Positions 1 to 11,544 of a DNA stretch of 15,944 nt are shown in pieces; within the stretch, counting starts at the first letter, position 1, and every line of letters starts with the position of its first letter. The notes under the pieces are model-generated. The model was not told the origin of the DNA, did not search any database, and saw nothing but the letters and a program-made list of their open reading frames with translations. The stretch is from IMG/VR virus record IMGVR_UViG_2713897073_000008. The stretch is one strand, 5' to 3'. The position numbers and the translations under genes were made by a program. The DNA is from a virus. Taxonomy: Duplodnaviria; Heunggongvirae; Uroviricota; Caudoviricetes.

Positions 1-267
1 TTACTCTGCAGGTGAAGTCGGCCACTCAATATCAGGTGCGGTTGATGTATCAACACGGTTCAGCAACACCCGATACTTCTTCCAGGCTTCCAGCAACGAG
101 TTTTCTTCCTCCGTTGCGATCTCCAGATCTACAGCATCCTGAAGTGGCGCAATATGCTCACTGAATTCCTGGATGTAGAACTGTGTGGTGACGGTCTTCC
201 AGCCATTCGGCTCCTGCTGTATCGAAGCATACCAGGCTATTTCAATATCGCTATGCTGCGGCAGCAT
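1..267 (-). CDS. tfa: Tail fiber assembly protein (Tfa), short 88 aa form retaining the conserved C-terminal domain
   Basis: C-terminal ~45 aa ([48 protein letters not shown]) match the conserved C-terminus of lambda-type Tfa as I recall it. The protein is about half the usual Tfa length, so the N-terminal part is replaced or truncated. TAA stop at 1-3. Confidence 0.65.
20..71. repeat. 52-bp conserved core of the tfa 3' end, direct-repeat copy 1 (2 mismatches to 1069..1120)
   Basis: ggccactcaatatcaggtgcGgttgatgtaTcaacacggttcagcaacaccc here versus the same string with A and C at the two capitalised positions at 1069-1120. Flanking sequence is related but more diverged. Confidence 0.8.
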
Positions 268-323
268 TTAACCCCTTGTAATTCATCGCCACAATTGATT
301 TAATTCACAAATAAAACTATAAC

Positions 324-992
324 ATGGTGAAATTAATGAAAAAAAACACAGATGATGGGGCTAAAATTTACACACCACTTACCCTAAAGCTTTATGACTG
401 GTGGGTTTTGGGAGTATCAAATCGGCTTGCATGGGGATGTCCTACAAAGGAACACCTTCTTCCACACTTTCTGGAACATTTAGGTAACAACCATCTGGAT
501 ATTGGTGTTGGAACTGGGTTTTACCTTACTCACGTACCTGAGAGTAGTCTGATATCTTTAATGGATTTGAACGAAGCTAGCCTGAACGCGGCATCGACAA
601 GGGCTGGGGAATCAAAAATTAAACATAAAATTAGCCATGATGTTTTTGAACCTTATCCCGCGGCATTACATGGTCAATTTGATTCCATTTCCATGTTTTA
701 CCTTCTTCACTGCCTGCCTGGAAATATATCTACAAAAAGCTGTGTAATACGCAATGCGGCGCAGGCCTTAACTGACGATGGAACTCTATACGGAGCCACA
801 ATTCTTGGTGACGGCGTTGTGCACAATAGCTTCGGTCAAAAACTGATGCGCATTTACAATCAAAAAGGCATCTTTTCAAACACAAAAGATTCCGAAGAAG
901 GCTTAACACATATACTCTCAGAGCATTTCGAGAATGTTAAAACCAAGATTAAAGGTACTGTAGTAATGTTTTCCGCTTCAGGGAAAAAATAG
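324..992 (+). CDS. Class I SAM-dependent methyltransferase (222 aa); alternative start at 336 has the better SD
   Basis: Glycine-rich motif I (HLDIGVGTGFYL) typical of Rossmann-fold SAM methyltransferases. Visibly AT-rich gene on the opposite strand to the flanking tfa sequences. TGGTGA 5 nt upstream of ATG 336. Confidence 0.6.
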   Translation: MVKLMKKNTDDGAKIYTPLTLKLYDWWVLGVSNRLAWGCPTKEHLLPHFLEHLGNNHLDIGVGTGFYLTHVPESSLISLMDLNEASLNAASTRAGESKIKHKISHDVFEPYPAALHGQFDSISMFYLLHCLPGNISTKSCVIRNAAQALTDDGTLYGATILGDGVVHNSFGQKLMRIYNQKGIFSNTKDSEEGLTHILSEHFENVKTKIKGTVVMFSASGKK

Positions 993-1046
993 CATCCAGC
1001 CGCAGCACGTTCTTGCGCACGACGTGCTGCGGCATAATCTCAATGA

Positions 1047-1163
1047 TTACTCCCTGACAGGGTTCGTAGGCCACTCAATATCAGGTGCAGTTGATGTACC
1101 AACACGGTTCAGCAACACCCTGCATGCCTTCCATGCCGCCAGCAATGATGTTTCCTCCTTCGT
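1047..1163 (-). pseudogene. tfa 3' fragment (about 38 codons of Tfa C-terminus, no start codon, in-frame stop immediately upstream)
   Basis: Minus-strand translation gives [39 protein letters not shown], homologous to the C-terminus of the 1..267 Tfa; homology ends abruptly at about 1163, preceded by TGA in frame. Confidence 0.6.
1069..1120. repeat. 52-bp conserved core of the tfa 3' end, direct-repeat copy 2
   Basis: See copy 1 at 20..71; same orientation, 50/52 identical by eye. Confidence 0.8.
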
Positions 1164-1439
1164 TGCATATACTGCTCACCTTTTTCACCCACGATTAACC
1201 AACAGCCAGATTCGCAGGCACGCCCCACCACGGCATATTCATACGCTTGCCATGTCCGAACATTTCAATCCAGCGATATTATGCCTGGGGTGTTCAAGCG
1301 CAATGAAGTACGTATTGTATCTTCGCGATTTTTTATAGGCTAATTGACGCGCAATTCTGAGCGGGGAGCGCACAATCAAACAGCACAGAATGGATCGCTG
1401 ATATTTATCCTTTTGTCGGTTTATCAAACAACAAGAGAG

Positions 1440-2654
1440 TCAATAGCGGATTGTCCCTACATCCATTTCTGGCGAATCCACTAACCAGAAATTATCTGGC
1501 TTTACAGCCAGAATGATCCAGGCAGTGTTTGTTGTTGATGACCAGGAAGGCAGCACATCGTATGCCGGGTCATCGCAAGAATCACGATAACCGTACTCAT
1601 TAAAAAGTGGAGCCATTGCTGCCACAAGATTCACCGCATTCAGCTCATTACCCAGCTTGCGCTCAAAAAGTGCCACACCTGCCGTTCCTTCCACCCACAC
1701 GCCACGGCTGTGACCACTATAACCATAATCAGGGTGGTACGGTGTGTAACCCGTGGTTTCCCTCGTACCAAATAAAAAACGCCCCATATATTTTCGGCAC
1801 TTAGCCGCTTTCTCAGCATCAATATTGGCAACAAACAATCCGCCCCAGGAAGACTGATCCAGCGCCGCTGCGTTGTCATAGTGGGTTGAATGAACCCCCT
1901 GTCGAAATCGGCCTTCATCTTCCACCCACAGACCTCTGATGATGCTCTTTGCCAGCCTGTCAGCCCGCTCACTGAAACCGTCAAATCCCAGCCGTCCCAT
2001 CAGTTCAAACAAAAACCAGATATCAACGTTATGCTCCAGTGCGCACCATTCGGCGACAAAAGTTTCATCAAAATTGCCGTCCACATAACGCCCCTGCCCC
2101 CCTTTATACAGGCCTTCACGCAGGTCGCCTGGTGTGCTCACCAGAAAAGTATCCAGCCAGGCAATGCCTGCCAATAGCTTTTCTCTGACCCGCGCAGTCT
2201 GAGTACCGTCCGGATACTTCTCCAGATAGAAAGCAAGAGCATAATAAACCCATGCCGCATTGCCCAAGCGGTAATAGGTACGCGGTGACATGGCAGACAG
2301 CCTGTTAACAAAAAACTTTACTCCACCGTTTTCATCAACAAGCGCACACAAGCCCGCAACGTATCTTTCTACAGCCTCATGTCGCTGAACCATCAACGCC
2401 AGTGCTGCCAGCGCCTGGTCATACGTGTAACACCGATCTTTCATCACCCTGATCACTTCGGGGTCTGCGTCCTCCGGCATCCAGTAGCTACGAATGAGCA
2501 GTGGAAACTCCAGCGTTGTGATCCACGCATTATCCTCAATCCGAATAAGACGAAACTGTTTTGCTCCCGTCCAGCAACGTCTGAAATAGAAAGTTCCGTC
2601 ACTATTCAAATTAGCGTCGCCGTTAAAATACTCTCCGGTTGTATAAGCATACAT
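1440..2654 (-). CDS. Hypothetical protein (404 aa), function unknown; may be a frameshifted continuation of the upstream portal-like ORF
   Basis: Long uninterrupted ORF with ordinary-looking codon usage and several antisense shadow ORFs. Its 5' end overlaps the 3' end of the portal-like ORF by about 49 bp in another frame. No motif I can name with confidence. Confidence 0.45.
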   Translation of the reverse strand: MYAYTTGEYFNGDANLNSDGTFYFRRCWTGAKQFRLIRIEDNAWITTLEFPLLIRSYWMPEDADPEVIRVMKDRCYTYDQALAALALMVQRHEAVERYVAGLCALVDENGGVKFFVNRLSAMSPRTYYRLGNAAWVYYALAFYLEKYPDGTQTARVREKLLAGIAWLDTFLVSTPGDLREGLYKGGQGRYVDGNFDETFVAEWCALEHNVDIWFLFELMGRLGFDGFSERADRLAKSIIRGLWVEDEGRFRQGVHSTHYDNAAALDQSSWGGLFVANIDAEKAAKCRKYMGRFLFGTRETTGYTPYHPDYGYSGHSRGVWVEGTAGVALFERKLGNELNAVNLVAAMAPLFNEYGYRDSCDDPAYDVLPSWSSTTNTAWIILAVKPDNFWLVDSPEMDVGTIRY

Positions 2655-3235
2655 ATCGACTTTATACTTTTCAGGTTCAGCCTGTTGCTCTCATCACTGG
2701 TCATGGGAATAAAGTCCGGCTCGAGCGCCTCCAGCCAGAAATGAACACCGGCAGAAGGCGTCAGGCTGTTTATGCGCCCGGAAACCATCTGGGCAAACAC
2801 CTCACCATCGCGCAGCCAGGTACGCAGCATCAGACGTTCCAGCATCGGACGGGTAAACTGCCCGGTGACCTCCGGACTGACAGACCATTCACTCCATCGG
2901 GTGCGTATCTCCGCTGCCAGATCACGGGCAATGGCCCCATTGCGTAATACCGGATGTGGCTCGACAATAATCCCGTTTTTCCCCACCACCCGTTCTTCCA
3001 GCTTGTCAAATACACCAATGACCAGATCGTGGTTGTTATCAAGGTAACGGGCCTGCTCACGTAACGACACGGCCCCGTACTGGCTTAACTGATCGGCAGT
3101 TCGGTTCTCCCGTCGGGCTTTGTGTGTCCGCGTCGTTTTTACGGCCTCATAAGCCTGGATCACCGCACGGGAACGCAGCCTTGCCGCTTTCCATCCTGGT
3201 GAAAAAACGCCAATCACATCATCAAGAATTGCCAT
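2606..3235 (-). CDS. Phage portal protein-like, N-terminal region only (209 aa); apparently truncated or frameshifted
   Basis: Arg-rich N-terminus followed by SLREQARYLDNNHDLVIGVFDKLEERVVGKNGI, resembling the conserved N-terminal motif of lambda-family portal proteins as I recall it. The ORF is far too short for a portal (~500+ aa). Start overlaps the end of the upstream ORF, as is typical of phage head genes. Confidence 0.4.
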   Translation of the reverse strand: MAILDDVIGVFSPGWKAARLRSRAVIQAYEAVKTTRTHKARRENRTADQLSQYGAVSLREQARYLDNNHDLVIGVFDKLEERVVGKNGIIVEPHPVLRNGAIARDLAAEIRTRWSEWSVSPEVTGQFTRPMLERLMLRTWLRDGEVFAQMVSGRINSLTPSAGVHFWLEALEPDFIPMTSDESNRLNLKSIKSICMLIQPESILTATLI

Positions 3236-4069: not shown

Positions 4070-4144
<75 letters not shown>

Positions 4145-4147
4145 ATA

Positions 4148-4223
<76 letters not shown>

Positions 4224-4225
4224 AC

Positions 4226-4302
4226 TGGACCGCCACCGGGGACTCGAACCTCGCACACTCAACTTAAAGAGTTGACGCTCTTTCCTGATGAGCTAGTGGC
4301 GG
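4226..4302 (-). tRNA. Atypical tRNA-like gene; canonical fold gives anticodon UUU (Lys) with non-canonical C33 (a register shift would give UCU, Arg)
   Basis: Reverse complement CCGCCAC-UA-GCUC-AUCAGGAAA-GAGC-G-UCAAC-UCUUUAA-GUUGA-GUGUG-CGAGG-UUCGAGU-CCCCG-GUGGCGG-U-CCA: 7-bp acceptor stem (C1-G72), 4-bp D-stem with GG in D-loop, 5-bp anticodon stem, T-stem with one A/C mismatch, CCA encoded. Only 2 nt and 1 nt from the neighbouring tRNAs. Confidence 0.55.
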
Positions 4303-4303
4303 T

Positions 4304-4379
4304 TGGTGGCCCTTGCTGGATTTGAACCAGCGACCTGGCGATTATGAGTCGCTCGCTCTCACCACTGAGCTAAAGGGCC
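4304..4379 (-). tRNA. tRNA with anticodon CAU, most like tRNA-Ile2 (lysidine-modified, AUA-decoding; ileX/ileZ type) rather than elongator Met
   Basis: Reverse complement GGCCCUUUAGCUCAGUGGUGAGAGCGAGCGACUCAUAAUCGCCAGGUCGCUGGUUCAAAUCCAGCAAGGGCCACCA; very similar to E. coli ileX as I recall it. Anticodon loop CUCAUAA. Confidence 0.8.
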
Positions 4380-4644: not shown

Positions 4645-5523
4645 ATGACGCAGCAACTCGAAAACATGCCAATAACAGAAATCGAAATTGCCTACGGTGG
4701 AGAGGCATACGCAGATAATCAGATCGACGCGAAAACATTAGGCGAAGCCTTAACCTCTCTTAGTGCCCTGATTGAACACGCCGAAAAAATAATTAATGGC
4801 GAAACAGCAGAGCCGAAAGTCAACATCAAGGCAACAAAAGAAGGTTCATTTACTTTGCTTGTTGCTGTGATGGGGAGCATAAAAACTATTAACGCCCTTG
4901 GCCTCGTTGCAGGTGGTGGAGTTGCCGCAGGTGGCGTACTCGGGATAATCGAATGGCTCAAAGGGCGTAAAATCAGCTCCATTGTCGTCGATGAACAAAA
5001 AGATACAGCAGAAATCGAAGTGGATGGTGAGAAGGTTAAATGCAGTAACGACATTCAAAAATTAATAACCAGTCCAATCATCCGAAAAGAACTGGATAAA
5101 TTAATCTATAAACCCCTGCAGACTGAAAAACCATCCACGTTCTCAGTTTCACAGCAGAAGCATAAGGTAGTCAGGGTGACGCAAGCTGAAGCAGTAAGTT
5201 TTAAAACTGCAAAATCCACCTTTGTCGAGAAAACGCACGTAACGACACGCCAAGCTAATGTACATTTTGCTAATGTTCGATTCAAGCAAGGCAAAAGCTG
5301 GGATATCATCCTGCCAAATGGCGAAGAAGTTAGCGCATCTATGAAAGATGAGGCTTTTCTTGAACGGGTTGAACACAACCAAGCAGCATTCTGTAAGGGT
5401 GATCTTTTTGTTGTAGAACTGACAGAAACAACAAAAGAAACAAATGGCGCGCTGTCTAAACCACGCTATAGTATTACTAAGGTTATACGCCACAGAGCGG
5501 CGGCAGATAGGAAACTACTTTAA
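4645..5523 (+). CDS. Hypothetical protein (292 aa from ATG 4645; ORF open from GTG 4612) with central glycine-zipper hydrophobic segment; first gene of AT-rich three-gene operon
   Basis: AAGGA SD 9 nt upstream of ATG 4645. Central FTLLVAVMGSIKTINALGLVAGGGVAAGGVLGIIEWL (GxxxG-rich) flanked by charged, K/T/E-rich soluble regions. Antisense frames carry only short shadow ORFs. No recognisable catalytic motif. Confidence 0.6.
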   Translation: MTQQLENMPITEIEIAYGGEAYADNQIDAKTLGEALTSLSALIEHAEKIINGETAEPKVNIKATKEGSFTLLVAVMGSIKTINALGLVAGGGVAAGGVLGIIEWLKGRKISSIVVDEQKDTAEIEVDGEKVKCSNDIQKLITSPIIRKELDKLIYKPLQTEKPSTFSVSQQKHKVVRVTQAEAVSFKTAKSTFVEKTHVTTRQANVHFANVRFKQGKSWDIILPNGEEVSASMKDEAFLERVEHNQAAFCKGDLFVVELTETTKETNGALSKPRYSITKVIRHRAAADRKLL

Positions 5524-5772: not shown

Positions 5773-6159
5773 ATGGCGAACACTAAATCCTACCTGGCAA
5801 TGCAGGCATGGTTTACCACCCTTATCACTGCGGGATTGAATTTCCTTTTTGACTGGCTTCCTCAATTAGCCTTCTTCAAATCATTGGCGCCTGGAGCTGC
5901 TGTCGGCTTATCTCATGTGGTAATTCTTCTTATCGCTTACATAGGTTTGCCTACGCTTAATGATGTAAGAATGAAAAGGGAAATAAAAACGGCCAGAAAA
6001 TTCATCACGAACTGCCTGGCCAACCCTAACCTAACACCAGACCAAATTGCGCACTACAACCAATGTCTTATCGATCTAGACAATAAGCTATTAAAAAACA
6101 TAAATATTCGTATTGATGCTTTATCTGACGCCGAATCGAAAGCTCAAGCAAACGAGTAG
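5773..6159 (+). CDS. Small membrane protein (128 aa; two predicted TM helices, soluble C-terminal domain)
   Basis: ATG directly abuts the upstream TGA (tgaATG), indicating translational coupling. Hydrophobic helices at about residues 10-32 and 40-62. The stop lies only 13 bp from the convergent Q gene stop. Confidence 0.55.
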   Translation: MANTKSYLAMQAWFTTLITAGLNFLFDWLPQLAFFKSLAPGAAVGLSHVVILLIAYIGLPTLNDVRMKREIKTARKFITNCLANPNLTPDQIAHYNQCLIDLDNKLLKNINIRIDALSDAESKAQANE

Positions 6160-6896: not shown

Positions 6897-7946
6897 TTAC
6901 CCAAGCACGCCAGTTGCAAAGGCGTGATCAAGAAAACGAAAAATTAAATCAACCTGAGAACCATGCTTTTCTTCGAACGCCAGCGGATCCGCATGAAGCT
7001 CGTTGTGATGCTCCCGACACAGCGGTAGCGTGAAAATATCGTGAGATTTTGTCCCCATTCCGCCCTGACCATGACCAATCAGGTGATGGGGATCGTCGGC
7101 TGGCTTACCACAACACGCACACGGCTGTGTCTTCACCCAGCGAGTGTATTTCTCGTTAACCCAGCGGCGACGTTTAGGTCGTTTCATGAAAGATTCCGGA
7201 GACTCAGGATCAACGGCAATGCTGACCACCGTCTTTTCCTGTGGTGGGTTCTGTTGCTGGTGGGCGTGAGGCAGCGGCGCAAGATTTTTTGTGCGCTGTT
7301 TCAGTATGCTGGTGGCGGTCTGCTCTCCCGGTACGATGTCGCTTTCACGGTACATGGAGCGGATTTTTTCCACACGCAACCCCAGCGAACGACGTAATAC
7401 CGCTTCCGGTAGCGCGTCCGCCACCTGATTGCGGACCGCCCACCAGGATAATTCAGCCAGAGATAATTCACGCTCCTGCGTACCGCTTATTGCGTGACCG
7501 ATGACGTCAATCATCCATGCTGACAGGTTTTGATGAGCAAGTTGCTCGAGTGATTCGGATGTCTGGTCACGCAGCTGGTTGTCGCAGTGCCAGCACAACA
7601 CCATTGCGCCGGTACCATAACGGTGAATGACGGTTTCGCTGTGATGATAATCGCCGTGTGGCCACTGGCAGGATTTAATATGGCGCAACAGCCAGTCAGA
7701 CAATGCACCAGCACCACCAGCAGCACGAATCACCCGCTCATCGCTGAAAAATGGCAGTAATGATTTATCCTCCGCCAGCGGCTGGCGAACGGCAGGAACG
7801 ACCCCGGACGGCAGACCGCGCATGCTTTTTGGCTCCGGTTCAACCAGCACTCTGCCGTTATGGAATACCTGCATGGATTCACGACCTGGCTTAACGATAA
7901 CCACCCCAAGTTCCGGCACCAGAACAGGTCGAAGTAATACCCGCAC
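6897..7946 (-). CDS. Phage nin-region protein, DUF968/YdfU-like with C-terminal Cys/His-rich HNH-like motif (349 aa)
   Basis: C-terminus CACCGKPADDPHHLIGHGQGGMGTKSHDIFTLPLCREHHNELH (CxxC...HH...H...C..HH..H). Size and position upstream of rusA fit the DUF968 proteins of lambdoid prophages. Confidence 0.65.
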   Translation of the reverse strand: MRVLLRPVLVPELGVVIVKPGRESMQVFHNGRVLVEPEPKSMRGLPSGVVPAVRQPLAEDKSLLPFFSDERVIRAAGGAGALSDWLLRHIKSCQWPHGDYHHSETVIHRYGTGAMVLCWHCDNQLRDQTSESLEQLAHQNLSAWMIDVIGHAISGTQERELSLAELSWWAVRNQVADALPEAVLRRSLGLRVEKIRSMYRESDIVPGEQTATSILKQRTKNLAPLPHAHQQQNPPQEKTVVSIAVDPESPESFMKRPKRRRWVNEKYTRWVKTQPCACCGKPADDPHHLIGHGQGGMGTKSHDIFTLPLCREHHNELHADPLAFEEKHGSQVDLIFRFLDHAFATGVLG

Positions 7947-7947
7947 G

Positions 7948-8220
7948 TTACCTCCAGATGCGTTGCTGGAATGTGCGGGACGGACGCGGTGGGCGTTCGG
8001 AATAAGGGAGCCTGACAGAAATTATCCAGTGTCGGAAGTCAGGGCCGAGGTCTTTCTGAAAGTCGTACCCACGCCTGCGGTAGTTCTGAATCAGCCATTC
8101 GGCCTGTTCTTCAGTGCATGGGGCATGCTGGTACCAGTCATATTTGAATGTATGAGAACGCCGCCCGTGCCAGCTGGCAAGGTCGGTATCAGAATTGTGA
8201 TGTTTGGTATTGTGCGCCAT
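7948..8220 (-). CDS. Hypothetical phage protein (90 aa), nin region
   Basis: ORF whose stop overlaps the DUF968 start (ATGA). No motif recognised; start codon choice uncertain (weak SD). Confidence 0.45.
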   Translation of the reverse strand: MAHNTKHHNSDTDLASWHGRRSHTFKYDWYQHAPCTEEQAEWLIQNYRRRGYDFQKDLGPDFRHWIISVRLPYSERPPRPSRTFQQRIWR

Positions 8221-8295
8221 CGGTTTTCTCTGCTGGCGCAGCAGGTGCCAGTTGTTCAGGCTGGCCTGTAGATTGTAAACCAGAATACGTAAAAC

Positions 8296-8317
8296 AAAAA
8301 ACCCGCCGAAGCGGGTT
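8296..8317 (-). terminator. Intrinsic terminator (minus-strand sense) downstream of the HTH-peptidase gene; identical 22-mer to 10131..10152
   Basis: AAAAAACCCGCCGAAGCGGGTT on plus; on the minus strand CCCGC-UUCG-GCGGG followed by UUUUUUGUUUU. Confidence 0.5.
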
Positions 8318-8321
8318 ATGC

Positions 8322-9443
8322 CTAGTGAATTTTGCCTCTAAGAGTTCGGTAAGATTGTAGTGAAACAACATCACCACTTCCTGGCAGTTCATGAACCGCA
8401 GGAAGATCATCTCCTACTAACTCATAAAAAATGTCCACTTCTATATCCATTTCATCAGCTATACGCTGTGGGTCGTATCCTAACTCTTCAAATAAAAACG
8501 ATAAAGCCCGACGGAATAACTCAGGACGCTCATGAGGGATTAGATAATCTTCTTTTTCATCAATAGCTTCCCCTTTCCGTTTCAACCCCATAAATGCAGT
8601 TCTGTACTGCTCATCAGTCAAAAGTCCTAATTGATGAGCCCTGTAAACAATGGCAGCCTTACTTACTTTCCATGTCAACTTAAATTGGCTTAGTCCCTGC
8701 CAATTTATCCTCCCCCCCACAGGTCTTGGAAAATATTTCGCCATCGACGTTCTGGGAAGCAACAGAGCAGAGGCAAAACGGTTTGCCTGGGATTCAGTTA
8801 ATCTATCCCCAGTAGAAATTCCTTCATGAAGAATCAAATGGGCAACCTCATGAGCAATATCAAAGCGTTGCCTACAAGGTGAATTTTTAGCTGTATTTCG
8901 AACAATAAAAGGCCTTCGTAGAGGAACAGACAGTGCATCTACTTCATCCGAAACGGAGTCAAATGAAGTAACAAACGCCCCAAGTTTCTCGGCAAGGCGA
9001 GTCATATTTTCAATTGGGCCAAAGCCTAAGCCCCACTCAATACGACATTTTTCTGCCGCTCGCTCGATATCTTCTTGTGTATGGACACGAAATTCAGGAA
9101 ATCGAACAGGTGACAAATTAAGGTTATCTTCAAATACATCAATAAAACGACGATAAAACTCAGCCTTAGCGAGTGTTGATAGCTTCGTTGACATCCTTGT
9201 CGAGGCGCGTTTACGAAAATGTACAATCTCTTCATTAACAGGAGAATGTTCCTGCCCTTCGAAAAAGGCGGGCTTCACGCGCAAAACCTCGGCTAATTTA
9301 TTTATAAGCTCTGGGGATGGAGTAGCTGAACCAGACTCCAGTCGCTGTACATACTGGCGTGTTTTTTCAACCTTCTCAGCAACCTGCTCCAGAGATAGCT
9401 CGTGATACAGACGAGCAAGTCTTAAATTAGTACCGTTAAACAC
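8322..9443 (-). CDS. XRE-family HTH fused to ImmA/IrrE-type (HExxH) zinc metallopeptidase domain, 373 aa; RosmerTA RmrA-like candidate
   Basis: N-terminal HTH (LSLEQVAEKVEKTRQYVQRLESG) and central HEVAH zinc-binding motif in the context typical of the ImmA/IrrE (M78/DUF955) family. GTG start with GGGTGA upstream, 10 nt after the upstream gene stop. Confidence 0.75.
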   Translation of the reverse strand: MFNGTNLRLARLYHELSLEQVAEKVEKTRQYVQRLESGSATPSPELINKLAEVLRVKPAFFEGQEHSPVNEEIVHFRKRASTRMSTKLSTLAKAEFYRRFIDVFEDNLNLSPVRFPEFRVHTQEDIERAAEKCRIEWGLGFGPIENMTRLAEKLGAFVTSFDSVSDEVDALSVPLRRPFIVRNTAKNSPCRQRFDIAHEVAHLILHEGISTGDRLTESQANRFASALLLPRTSMAKYFPRPVGGRINWQGLSQFKLTWKVSKAAIVYRAHQLGLLTDEQYRTAFMGLKRKGEAIDEKEDYLIPHERPELFRRALSFLFEELGYDPQRIADEMDIEVDIFYELVGDDLPAVHELPGSGDVVSLQSYRTLRGKIH

Positions 9444-9453
9444 ATTTCACCCA

Positions 9454-10047
9454 CTATTTGCTATTTTGTTTCTTTTCCTTCTCAGTCTTAGACGCACTGA
9501 TAGGTTCTAGTTCGATAGGTACCGGTGCTGGAGGTACATCATCGACAGAGTTCAGCATAACAACACGGTCCGCACCATATGTCCAAGTTGACACGATCTC
9601 ACCAAACACGTTATAGCCATTAAAAATGACTCTACCACCCTCGCCTTCAAATTCAGGCTTTTCAACCACAAAGCGATGCATAGTTGGAGTAGTCTCCTCT
9701 GACTCAAAGAGTCGATCAGCATCATTTCTTTTGAAAAAACCGCGTTTCTTGGGGTTATCTGCGTCATCAGTAAAGAAACGAATAGGGACATTCCCAATTG
9801 AAAACGTAAGATCCATGCCAGGATTAAGTAGTCTTAACCAGTCATATGTCTTTCGTACGCACATTTGTAGCAACGCCTGCCGCTGACGCCCAAATGTACA
9901 ACCACCACGAGTGTAATTATCATCATAGGGCGATGACAATAACTCATGAGTAATATCCTGTATCCTGAGCAACTCCTCAGCTATAATGGTTAAACGCACC
10001 TCTGTTAACTCAGGAAAGAACTCCCAAGGGAATGGATGGTTCTGCAT
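9454..10047 (-). CDS. Hypothetical protein (197 aa from ATG 10047; ORF table extends to TTG 10095), upstream partner of the HTH-peptidase; candidate toxin/effector
   Basis: GGAG SD 9 nt upstream of ATG 10047. No TM segment and no recognisable motif. Visibly AT-rich, co-oriented and tightly linked with 8322..9443. Confidence 0.55.
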   Translation of the reverse strand: MQNHPFPWEFFPELTEVRLTIIAEELLRIQDITHELLSSPYDDNYTRGGCTFGRQRQALLQMCVRKTYDWLRLLNPGMDLTFSIGNVPIRFFTDDADNPKKRGFFKRNDADRLFESEETTPTMHRFVVEKPEFEGEGGRVIFNGYNVFGEIVSTWTYGADRVVMLNSVDDVPPAPVPIELEPISASKTEKEKKQNSK

Positions 10048-10082
10048 AGACACTTCTCCGCCTAATCCGTGCAAAAAACGAC

Positions 10083-10128
10083 TTTTGTCAACCAAGATAT
10101 TGGTGCATATTCATAATTTTGTCAACCA
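10083..10128 (-). promoter_or_regulatory. Two direct repeats of TGGTTGACAAAA (each containing a consensus -35 TTGACA) immediately upstream of the 197 aa gene; candidate promoter/operator
   Basis: Minus-strand TGGTTGACAAAA at 10128-10117 and 10094-10083, 34 bp apart, between the upstream terminator and the start codon. Confidence 0.3.
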
Positions 10129-10130
10129 AT

Positions 10131-10152
10131 AAAAAACCCGCCGAAGCGGGTT
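10131..10152 (-). terminator. Intrinsic terminator (minus-strand sense) upstream of the two-gene module; identical 22-mer to 8296..8317
   Basis: AAAAAACCCGCCGAAGCGGGTT; on the minus strand the hairpin is followed by UUUUUUAUU. Would insulate the module from transcription coming from the ParA-like gene. Confidence 0.5.
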
Positions 10153-10497
10153 AAGTGCGGGTGCGTTGAGGATGCCTGACACATCAGAGGTGGCGAGGGA
10201 TTTCTCCCTCGCCTGGTCTCTTACTCCTCAGGTTCGTAAGCTGTGAAGACAGCGACCTCCGTCTGGCCGGTTCGGATTCGTACCTCGCAGAGGTCTTTCC
10301 TCGTTATCAGTACCGCAACAATTTCGTATTCATGATTCATTTCATCTAAAACAGTTCATAAACCTAAATAAATTCAAAAAATCACAACACAAATAAATAT
10401 AAATTATCTCATCCTGAAGAACGATAGGATTATTTAGAATTAATAACAATTAATGTAACAATAATTATCAATCCAGATTATTCAAATAAAATGTCAT

Positions 10498-11544
10498 TTA
10501 CCATATGGAGTTGTGAATGAACTTTAATTCATTTTTTATTTTGTTAACAGATAAATTCACGGATGTCCTAACTCTATTCACAGTCATTGCATCTCCTGGA
10601 TTTAACAACTCTAATGGTTTAGACTTAGCACTTGACATTCTGCCACTACCCAGAAAATCATCAAGAATCACAATGTGATTATTAGGATCATCTGTTGTAA
10701 AATTACTAATATTTTGTCGAATTACCTCTCTTACAGCTTCGATGTACATTTTTGTCTGTTGATTTGGTTTATTCCTTGCTCCTGCCACTGTTGACCATCC
10801 GCAATGGGTAATAACCACCATCTGAATTTTTGGTGTATGGCCATCAGACGGCATTATCTTTCTAAATTCTGATGTTGGTTTAGTCAGAGTATCAATAAGT
10901 AATCTTAATGAATTAATCGATTGCTGATCTGTCCTCACTGGAACTATTAAAGCATCTGTTGCATGCCAAGATAAATGCGTCGCTCCAGAGAAAAAAGGTG
11001 ATGTATCAATTAACGCTTTTGTAGTACCAGTTTCAACCATTTCTCTGGCTATTTCTTTCTTCAGAGAAAAAAGAATTGTATCAATAACAACCTGCTGAGT
11101 AGCCCCAGAAATTGTTCTGGCTTGAGCCAGAGCATTCGCCATTTGCGTAGGTAGAAGATAAAGTTGACTATCAGATTGAATAAAATAGTTATTCTTGCCC
11201 GCAAACCAAGCATTAGTTGATGATACTAGCTTTGCAGCACGCGTTGCAAATCCAAGCCCTGGAACAAAATAAGGCATTAAGAGGTCATTTGCAGTTGTGC
11301 TAGACGAAGATGCATAATTATTGTCAAAAAAATATGATAAATTTCCTTGCGGGCACGTATCCACGATTAATGCGTTATCCGCCAAATATGACAGATTAAA
11401 AGTTAAAGATGTCTTACCAATGCCTCCCCGTAAATTACATACTGTATATTTATCATATTTCGGCAAATTAAGACTTCTTACATTACCGTCAGCAACTTCG
11501 AATTGACGCTCTATCAGAGCATTAACATTTGATTCACTAGTCAT
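10498..11544 (-). CDS. ParA/MinD-superfamily P-loop ATPase-like protein with degenerate signature residues (348 aa)
   Basis: Deviant Walker A-like NLRGGIGKTS (R in place of the signature K of KGGxGKT) followed about 20 aa later by ALIVDTCPQGN (ParA/Soj motif LLIDxDPQGN with D to C), and a later ALIDTSP hydrophobic-D motif. Very AT-rich gene with AT-rich flanks. Confidence 0.6.
   Translation of the reverse strand: MTSESNVNALIERQFEVADGNVRSLNLPKYDKYTVCNLRGGIGKTSLTFNLSYLADNALIVDTCPQGNLSYFFDNNYASSSSTTANDLLMPYFVPGLGFATRAAKLVSSTNAWFAGKNNYFIQSDSQLYLLPTQMANALAQARTISGATQQVVIDTILFSLKKEIAREMVETGTTKALIDTSPFFSGATHLSWHATDALIVPVRTDQQSINSLRLLIDTLTKPTSEFRKIMPSDGHTPKIQMVVITHCGWSTVAGARNKPNQQTKMYIEAVREVIRQNISNFTTDDPNNHIVILDDFLGSGRMSSAKSKPLELLNPGDAMTVNRVRTSVNLSVNKIKNELKFIHNSIW

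Follow-up and report, generated by a model that had tools for sequence, protein, structure and literature searches.

The window examined here, a stretch of 15,944 nucleotides (nt) from a virus of the class Caudoviricetes (IMG/VR record IMGVR_UViG_2713897073_000008), carries on its minus strand two adjacent genes that very likely make up a RosmerTA toxin–antitoxin cassette of the Vmi480/Vmi470 subfamily, situated in the nin-equivalent region of a Qin-like Escherichia coli prophage. This degree of confidence applies to the overall picture, identity and mechanism together, and the individual mechanistic steps that are worded conditionally below are held much lower. The toxin gene, rmrT, comes first: an open reading frame (ORF) of 197 amino acids (aa) at 9454–10047, with its ATG at 10047 and a Shine-Dalgarno sequence, GGAG, at 10056–10059. 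Its stop codon is followed after 10 nt by the GTG, at 9443, of the 373-aa ORF (8322–9443) of the antitoxin gene rmrA. An initial annotation, made from the sequence alone, had proposed a two-gene module here, and both ORFs are indeed present on the minus strand. The genes are adjacent and co-oriented and share one promoter region and one terminator, which is the operon arrangement of RosmerTA, and the RmrA and RmrT profiles of the PADLOC definition of RosmerTA are both matched over their full length.

The antitoxin assignment rests on profile matches. RmrA carries Pfam HTH_3, a helix-turn-helix (HTH) domain, at residues 7–61 (E 1.5e-12) and, at residues 151–269, the whole of the Peptidase_M78 (IrrE N-terminal-like) domain (E 8.4e-17, positions 1–122 of the 123 in the profile); within this domain HEVAH occupies residues 198–202. 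The XRE HTH and HEVAH zinc-peptidase motif that the initial annotation had read in the downstream gene are thus both in place, and the HExxH region does belong to the M78 profile, a mismatch with which was to have counted against the proposal. Over the whole protein, RmrA matches PADLOC model PDLC03943 (E 4.3e-201, profile positions 1–368 of 370), with weaker matches to all other PADLOC RmrA models as well as to capP (E 2.8e-17) and capH (E 5e-10), and in PHROGs it falls into family 2439. Across 63 distinct homologues, H198, E199, H202, E217 and the A220/N221/F223/A226/P230 motif are conserved in at least 97%, and catalysis therefore appears to be under selection. RmrA is also conserved more than RmrT, and the only sequence relatives of RmrA with solved structures were generic HTH proteins. 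At one E. coli locus, in ETEC4090 (NZ_CP122620.1, locus 323–1443), the match falls one base short of the query length, and the annotation divides rmrA into two ORFs of 245 aa and 118 aa.

For the 197-aa protein, the match to PADLOC model PDLC03929 (E 5.1e-92) spans profile positions 1–197 of 198, and PHROG 5786 is matched at E 1.6e-91. The protein itself matches nothing in Pfam or NCBIfam, as one would expect from the earlier remark that it had no recognisable motif, and the same two libraries gave nothing consistent when run on it together with 62 relatives. These results split the earlier interpretation in two: the description of the architecture as RosmerTA-like is upheld and made stronger by the full-length RmrT (PDLC03929) and RmrA (PDLC03943) matches, while the suggestion of a possibly new toxin family falls to the PADLOC RmrT model, to PHROG 5786 and to the literature on the E101 module and on Vmi480/Vmi470 described below. 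A match of the 197-aa protein to a known non-toxic phage function had been named as an outcome that would undo the interpretation; the match is instead to a toxin family. A search of 5.8 billion proteins returned 80 relatives of RmrT, all of ∼200 aa and hardly any of them annotated; HMMER, run exhaustively on cluster representatives, gave 419 matches at E ≤ 1e-3, and PDLC03929 was matched by all of 85 diverse relatives. The family ranges over the Gamma- and Betaproteobacteria, and its full-length matches are nearly all ∼190–230 aa long, a near-uniformity that gives no sign of recurrent domain fusions.

The two genes also travel together. An RmrA homologue lies directly downstream of RmrT, on the same strand, in 79 of the 83 loci that we fetched, the four exceptions being three toxin fragments and one contig end, so that the pairing holds at all 79 of the 79 loci with a full-length toxin gene and downstream DNA. 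Homologous pairs occupy the lambdoid nin region in Phytobacter and, in P2-like prophages of Proteus, the interval separating gpA from the portal gene, a location reportedly described as a defence hotspot by Rousset et al. 2022. A pair in Aeromonas is flanked by HNH, methyltransferase and large-helicase genes, and other pairs lie at plain chromosomal sites. The whole cassette of the window is found in 23 of 5426 complete E. coli genomes (∼0.4%), many of them from strains labelled enterotoxigenic E. coli (ETEC) or from diarrhoeal sources, and 11 prophage contigs in IMG/VR carry toxins 98–100% identical to the window RmrT; the cassette was found in no record of the isolated-phage collection.

The module is of an already catalogued and published kind, and a characterised E. 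coli module has the identical antitoxin. Rousset et al. (bioRxiv 10.1101/2020.05.25.114553; Nat Microbiol 2021) reported that a prophage module consisting of E101_02645 (WP_001179380.1, the toxin) and E101_02644 (WP_000481765.1) makes clpP essential in E. coli E101. In that work the module was harmless in wild-type cells and toxic on ClpP depletion, repression of the toxin gene restored growth, and suppressors of clpP essentiality had either lost the prophage by excision (three of four) or acquired the toxin substitution T46S; when moved to K-12 the module made clpP essential there as well, except with the T46S toxin. The window resembles E101 in having a prophage-borne toxin–antitoxin module, a 197-aa toxin with T46 and the same antitoxin accession, WP_000481765.1, which means that the antitoxin sequence is the same in both. 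The published suppressor site T46, present in the window toxin, lies within a loop, D42-D-N-Y-T-R, that is invariant in RmrT. The presence of the cassette would mark those ∼0.4% of complete E. coli genomes as belonging to strains that drugs against ClpP, or mutations in clpP, would kill.

The E101 pair was itself described as homologous to Vmi480/Vmi470, at 33% and 42% identity (10.1101/2020.05.25.114553). In Vibrio mimicus MGIVmi1, the Vmi480 toxin (198 aa) is lethal alone in E. coli and is rescued by co-expressed Vmi470, the 362-aa antitoxin with HTH and Zn-peptidase domains, which could not be deleted alone (Luo et al. 2015; PMC4671572). There too the toxin gene, which encodes no known domain, comes first, and the antitoxin gene follows 5 nt later; unlike the module in the window, this pair, a distant homologue whose similarity we take as reported by Rousset et al., is borne on a mobilisable genomic island and not on a prophage. 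Millman et al. 2022, who defined RosmerTA by the combination of a Zn-peptidase antitoxin and a functionally uncharacterised toxin, pointed to Luo 2015 and Rousset 2021 as precedents and did not succeed in making a ΔrmrA mutant. The RosmerTA of E. coli OLC-716 has the same operon layout as the window, and its RmrA, with HTH and M78, is 31% identical to ours over 311 residues (E 2e-38). Phage protection has been reported for RosmerTA with other toxins, namely those of OLC-716 (Millman 2022) and Gordonia phage Kita (Ernits 2023).

The rmrT–rmrA cassette is a self-contained moron, with a promoter region, two genes and a terminator. Compared with phage Evi, in which window 7900–8318 and 10133–10322 align to adjoining DNA with a 21-nt overlap, the cassette is an indel at 8319–10132, which the earlier limits of 8318–10130 nearly equal. 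A repeat search found a 26-nt direct repeat flanking it, the two copies being 96% identical and 1835 nt apart, and the empty site in phage Evi carries a single copy. In a terminator scan this boundary repeat was recognised as the hok intrinsic terminator AACCCGCTTCGGCGGGTTTTTT. A third component such as that of PD-λ-2 was considered and rejected, the indel containing two genes only. The GC content of the module is 42.8%, lower than the 46.6% of the whole window and the 54–55% of the flanking genes DUF968 and RusA, which bears out the earlier description of it as AT-rich. The features of the cassette, in the direction of transcription, are as follows.

10128–10153, minus strand: upstream copy of the 26-nt direct repeat, the intrinsic terminator of a hok remnant (stem-loop 10135–10152 and T-run), which forms the upstream edge of the cassette.
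10103–10129, minus strand: operator-like box O1, TTGGTTGACAAAATTATGAATATGCAC, overlapping the -35 hexamer TTGACA (10120–10125).
10097–10102, minus strand: putative -10 hexamer CAATAT, with a 17-nt spacer from the -35 TTGACA.
10069–10095, minus strand: operator-like box O2, TTGGTTGACAAAAGTCGTTTTTTGCAC, just downstream of the putative -10 and over the expected transcription start.
9454–10047, minus strand: rmrT, 197-aa toxin of the Vmi480 / PADLOC PDLC03929 family, WP_001179382.1 (V17 allele), from PADLOC, PHROG and RefSeq on identical DNA.
8322–9443, minus strand: rmrA, 373-aa antitoxin/repressor, WP_000481765.1, with HTH (7–61), M78 (151–269) and a variable C-terminal tail, from Pfam, PADLOC and RefSeq.
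8293–8318, minus strand: downstream copy of the 26-nt repeat, which is the cassette terminator (stem-loop 8300–8317) and begins 4 nt past the rmrA stop.

A scan for consensus promoters did not flag the cassette promoter because its -10, CAATAT, is a weak match, and we placed it by comparing homologous loci. Upstream of rmrT, the repeat search had found two exact copies of a 13-nt sequence, TTGGTTGACAAAA, in direct orientation with a period of 34 nt, and these belong to a pair of boxes of the form GGTTGACAAA-N8-TTTGCAC, ∼34 nt apart, that is conserved over the rmrT promoter. Seven divergent loci have the same layout of two boxes, GTTGACAAA-N7–9-TTTGCA(C/A), in which the first box gives a perfect -35 with a -10 (CAATAT or GATAAT) 17–18 nt on, and the second box falls just past the -10. 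More broadly, of the 66 distinct upstream regions taken from homologous loci, 58 contain two TTGACA hexamers at a distance of 31–35 nt, compared with 65 of 5000 control windows (1.3%), and the consensus of the operator unit is tGGTTGACAAA-N8-aTtTGCAc. We infer that the two boxes are operators for the HTH of RmrA, through which it would repress its own operon; a conserved box pair over the promoter fits such autorepression and offers a handle for probing it.

These observations can be assembled into a mechanism. In the lysogen, the cassette would be expressed from its own promoter and held down by RmrA, whose HTH would bind the two conserved boxes over the -35 and the transcription start. RmrT would be kept harmless by the zinc-peptidase site of RmrA together with ClpXP/ClpAP proteolysis, and free RmrT would stay low; the peptidase may process the toxin or hand it over, or may cleave RmrA itself, as in ImmA/ImmR and CapP/CapH. 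Phage infection would upset this balance and free RmrT, and growth of the infected cell would stop, an abortive infection that would protect the lysogen population. The reasons for supposing that phage triggers the release of RmrT are the membership of the pair in the RosmerTA family and the hotspot locations of its homologues.

Parts of this scheme have counterparts in known systems. In ImmR/ImmA of ICEBs1, DdrO/IrrE and CapH/CapP, an M78 metallopeptidase cleaves an XRE HTH repressor on a damage signal, and RmrA shares both domains with them and matches the capP and capH profiles; it differs in carrying the two domains on one polypeptide and in its obligate association with a toxin gene upstream. 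Cleavage of the HTH has been proposed by Ernits et al. as the regulation of Rosmer-like toxin–antitoxin pairs. In SocAB, a type VI system of Caulobacter, and in RipAB, a Rosmer-family pair of Streptococcus pneumoniae, ClpXP restrains the toxin and the protease is essential when the module is present, although SocA, unlike RmrA, is a small adaptor with neither an HTH nor a peptidase domain. ClpX dependence is also found in Pectobacteriaceae with RosmerTA, where rmrA is essential.

The structure of RmrT was considered from a predicted model. AlphaFold2 with a deep alignment gave a soluble alpha+beta domain (predicted local distance difference test, pLDDT, 91.3; predicted template modelling score, pTM, 0.79) in which two long helices (residues 16–36 and 44–64) accompany a sheet of six strands that includes one short helix; the C-terminal tail, from about residue 160 to 197, is modelled with lower confidence. 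Its conserved polar residues are D42, Y45, R54, R90, D94/D95, K101, R125 and E129. A single-sequence search and two profiles found no relatives of RmrT with solved structures, and none of the fold matches was significant, the best being a weak resemblance to a restriction endonuclease. A PD-(D/E)XK restriction-endonuclease fold was weighed as a candidate and rejected, since, besides this lack of a significant fold match, the residue that would be catalytic, D79, varies in the wide family and a proline stands where (D/E) would be required. A membrane-depolarising toxin of the Gordonia phage Kita type (Ernits 2023) was likewise set aside: the highest mean Kyte-Doolittle value over 19 residues of RmrT is 0.82, so that no transmembrane segment is predicted.

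A more specific version of the mechanism, which we regard as doubtful, would make the system protease-gated. The M78 site of RmrA would process either RmrT or RmrA itself and hand RmrT to ClpXP, the sensor would be Clp capacity or a signal that activates M78, and RmrT would be a degenerate protein of the restriction-endonuclease fold acting on DNA or on a replication factor. If true, this would explain why ClpX/ClpP are essential in hosts of RosmerTA with unrelated toxins.

Several points weigh against the assignment of the window pair as an anti-phage RosmerTA cassette working in the manner proposed. The verified RosmerTA of Millman et al. has an unrelated toxin: phage protection was verified for OLC-716, whose RmrT (239 aa) has no detectable similarity to the window toxin (best BLASTP E 7.1), and a relationship between the two toxins is accordingly rejected. 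For the toxin subfamily of the window, the literature yielded no phage-challenge result, and Rousset et al. considered the biological role of the E101 module unknown (10.1101/2020.05.25.114553). The E101 toxin, WP_001179380.1, which we compared by accession only, differs from that of the window, WP_001179382.1, and the window allele is itself one residue, V17E, away from the commonest allele, WP_001179381.1 (E17). E17, the commonest E. coli allele, is found on 597 contigs and V17 on 145 (codon 17 at window 9997), and the change is probably neutral because position 17 is variable across the wider family. In ETEC4090, a frameshift breaks rmrA in two, and rmrT (E17 allele) is whole; the N-terminal 245 residues of RmrA may be enough there, or the toxin may be tolerated. 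Lastly, operator binding, the substrate of the peptidase and the role of ClpP are all things that we infer.

Three other explanations of the pair have to be set against the RosmerTA defence cassette, and we consider each of them less likely. The pair could be an addiction module for post-segregational killing, in which a labile antitoxin and a stable toxin stabilise the prophage rather than defend its host. The toxin–antitoxin layout on a mobile element suits this, as do the location of Vmi480/Vmi470 on a mobilisable genomic island with an antitoxin that cannot be deleted alone (PMC4671572) and the essentiality of rmrA in Pectobacteriaceae with RosmerTA. However, three of the four E101 suppressors lost the prophage by excision and lived, and loss of the module is therefore not lethal; moreover, toxicity on ClpP depletion indicates a toxin limited by protease rather than an antitoxin labile to it, the opposite of the classical scheme, and members of the family also occupy fixed sites in chromosomes. 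On balance we judge addiction to be unlikely.

Even less probable, in our estimation, is that RmrA is a damage-responsive regulator of the ImmR/ImmA or CapH/CapP type that controls prophage or neighbouring genes, with the 197-aa protein as an effector or co-factor rather than a toxin. Its capP and capH matches, the HTH cleavage proposed by Ernits et al. and the conserved operators, which indicate a real transcriptional role, can all be read in this way, but otherwise collinear prophages differ in whether they have the cassette, which occurs outside prophages too, always and only with the 197-aa gene, and the genetic evidence from E101 and Vmi480/Vmi470 makes the 197-aa protein the toxic component. 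We give just as little credence to a stress-signalling role in which the pair, like RipAB of S. pneumoniae, would set aside an arrested ‘sentinel’ sub-population under proteotoxic or replication stress and have no part in anti-phage defence. RipAB acts on the DnaN clamp and drives competence when ClpX is depleted, and ClpP dependence has been shown for the E. coli module; a relationship between RipA and the window toxin, however, has not been shown, and the location of the family at phage cargo and defence hotspot sites, together with its verified anti-phage members, favours defence. As a RosmerTA cassette, the pair is a true positive for a genome scan and not a discovery, since standard defence finders would call it RosmerTA.

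The surroundings of the cassette are those of a lambdoid prophage. RefSeq annotation of identical DNA places it in a Qin-like prophage, with the replication genes on one side and RusA/Q on the other, a position for which the label of nin region used in the initial annotation is fair, and a 2.2-kb query (8200–10400) is 100% identical to E. coli chromosomes such as that of strain 99-3165. The gene order in RefSeq, in the direction of transcription, is as follows.

Up to and including the cassette: repressor/cro-like genes, YdaT, an O-like gene, DUF977, a ParA-like gene, a truncated hok, then rmrT–rmrA.
After rmrA: a 90-aa gene, DUF968, RusA, Q, four tRNAs, holin, lysozyme.

In strain 504239, which lacks the ParA-like gene at this locus, the same cassette has an intact hokD as its neighbour, from which it follows that the ParA-like and hok neighbours are not parts of the cassette, and a functional tie to either was rejected on this arrangement. 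The hok remnant is a hok/gef-family pseudogene (window 10221–10322, minus strand) that lacks its N-terminus and retains its 3′ untranslated region and terminator, the latter forming the upstream boundary repeat of the cassette. Homology to prophages with intact hokD ends at 10315, where the AT-rich ParA-like segment starts. That segment, with a GC content of 36.5% and a sliding-window minimum of 32%, encodes a ParA/MinD-like ATPase of 348 aa (window 10498–11544, minus strand; AAA_31, E 8e-10; PHROG 164 ‘ParA-like partition protein’, E 2.8e-30), an orphan with no evident ParB partner, whose gene is missing from the otherwise identical locus of strain 504239.

Three further features lie elsewhere in the window. 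At the lysis/terminase end, a 222-aa protein with an S-adenosylmethionine-dependent methyltransferase domain (window 324–992, plus strand; Methyltransf_12, E 3.9e-09) is encoded where RefSeq annotates no gene in identical E. coli DNA. Between Q and the tRNA cluster, an interval that in Stx phages is the cargo slot holding stx, a 292-aa protein without a Pfam domain (window 4645–5523, plus strand) is recognised over nearly its full length by the PADLOC model of a candidate defence family, PDC-S42 (PDLC05015, E 2.8e-53); it lies on the strand opposite to its neighbours, is accompanied by a 128-aa ORF (5773–6159, plus strand), and may give this prophage a second candidate for defence. Downstream of Q are four phage-borne tRNA genes (window 4070–4379, minus strand), for Gly-TCC, Thr-TGT, Lys-TTT and one with a CAT anticodon, which is assigned to Met by ARAGORN and to Ile by RefSeq.

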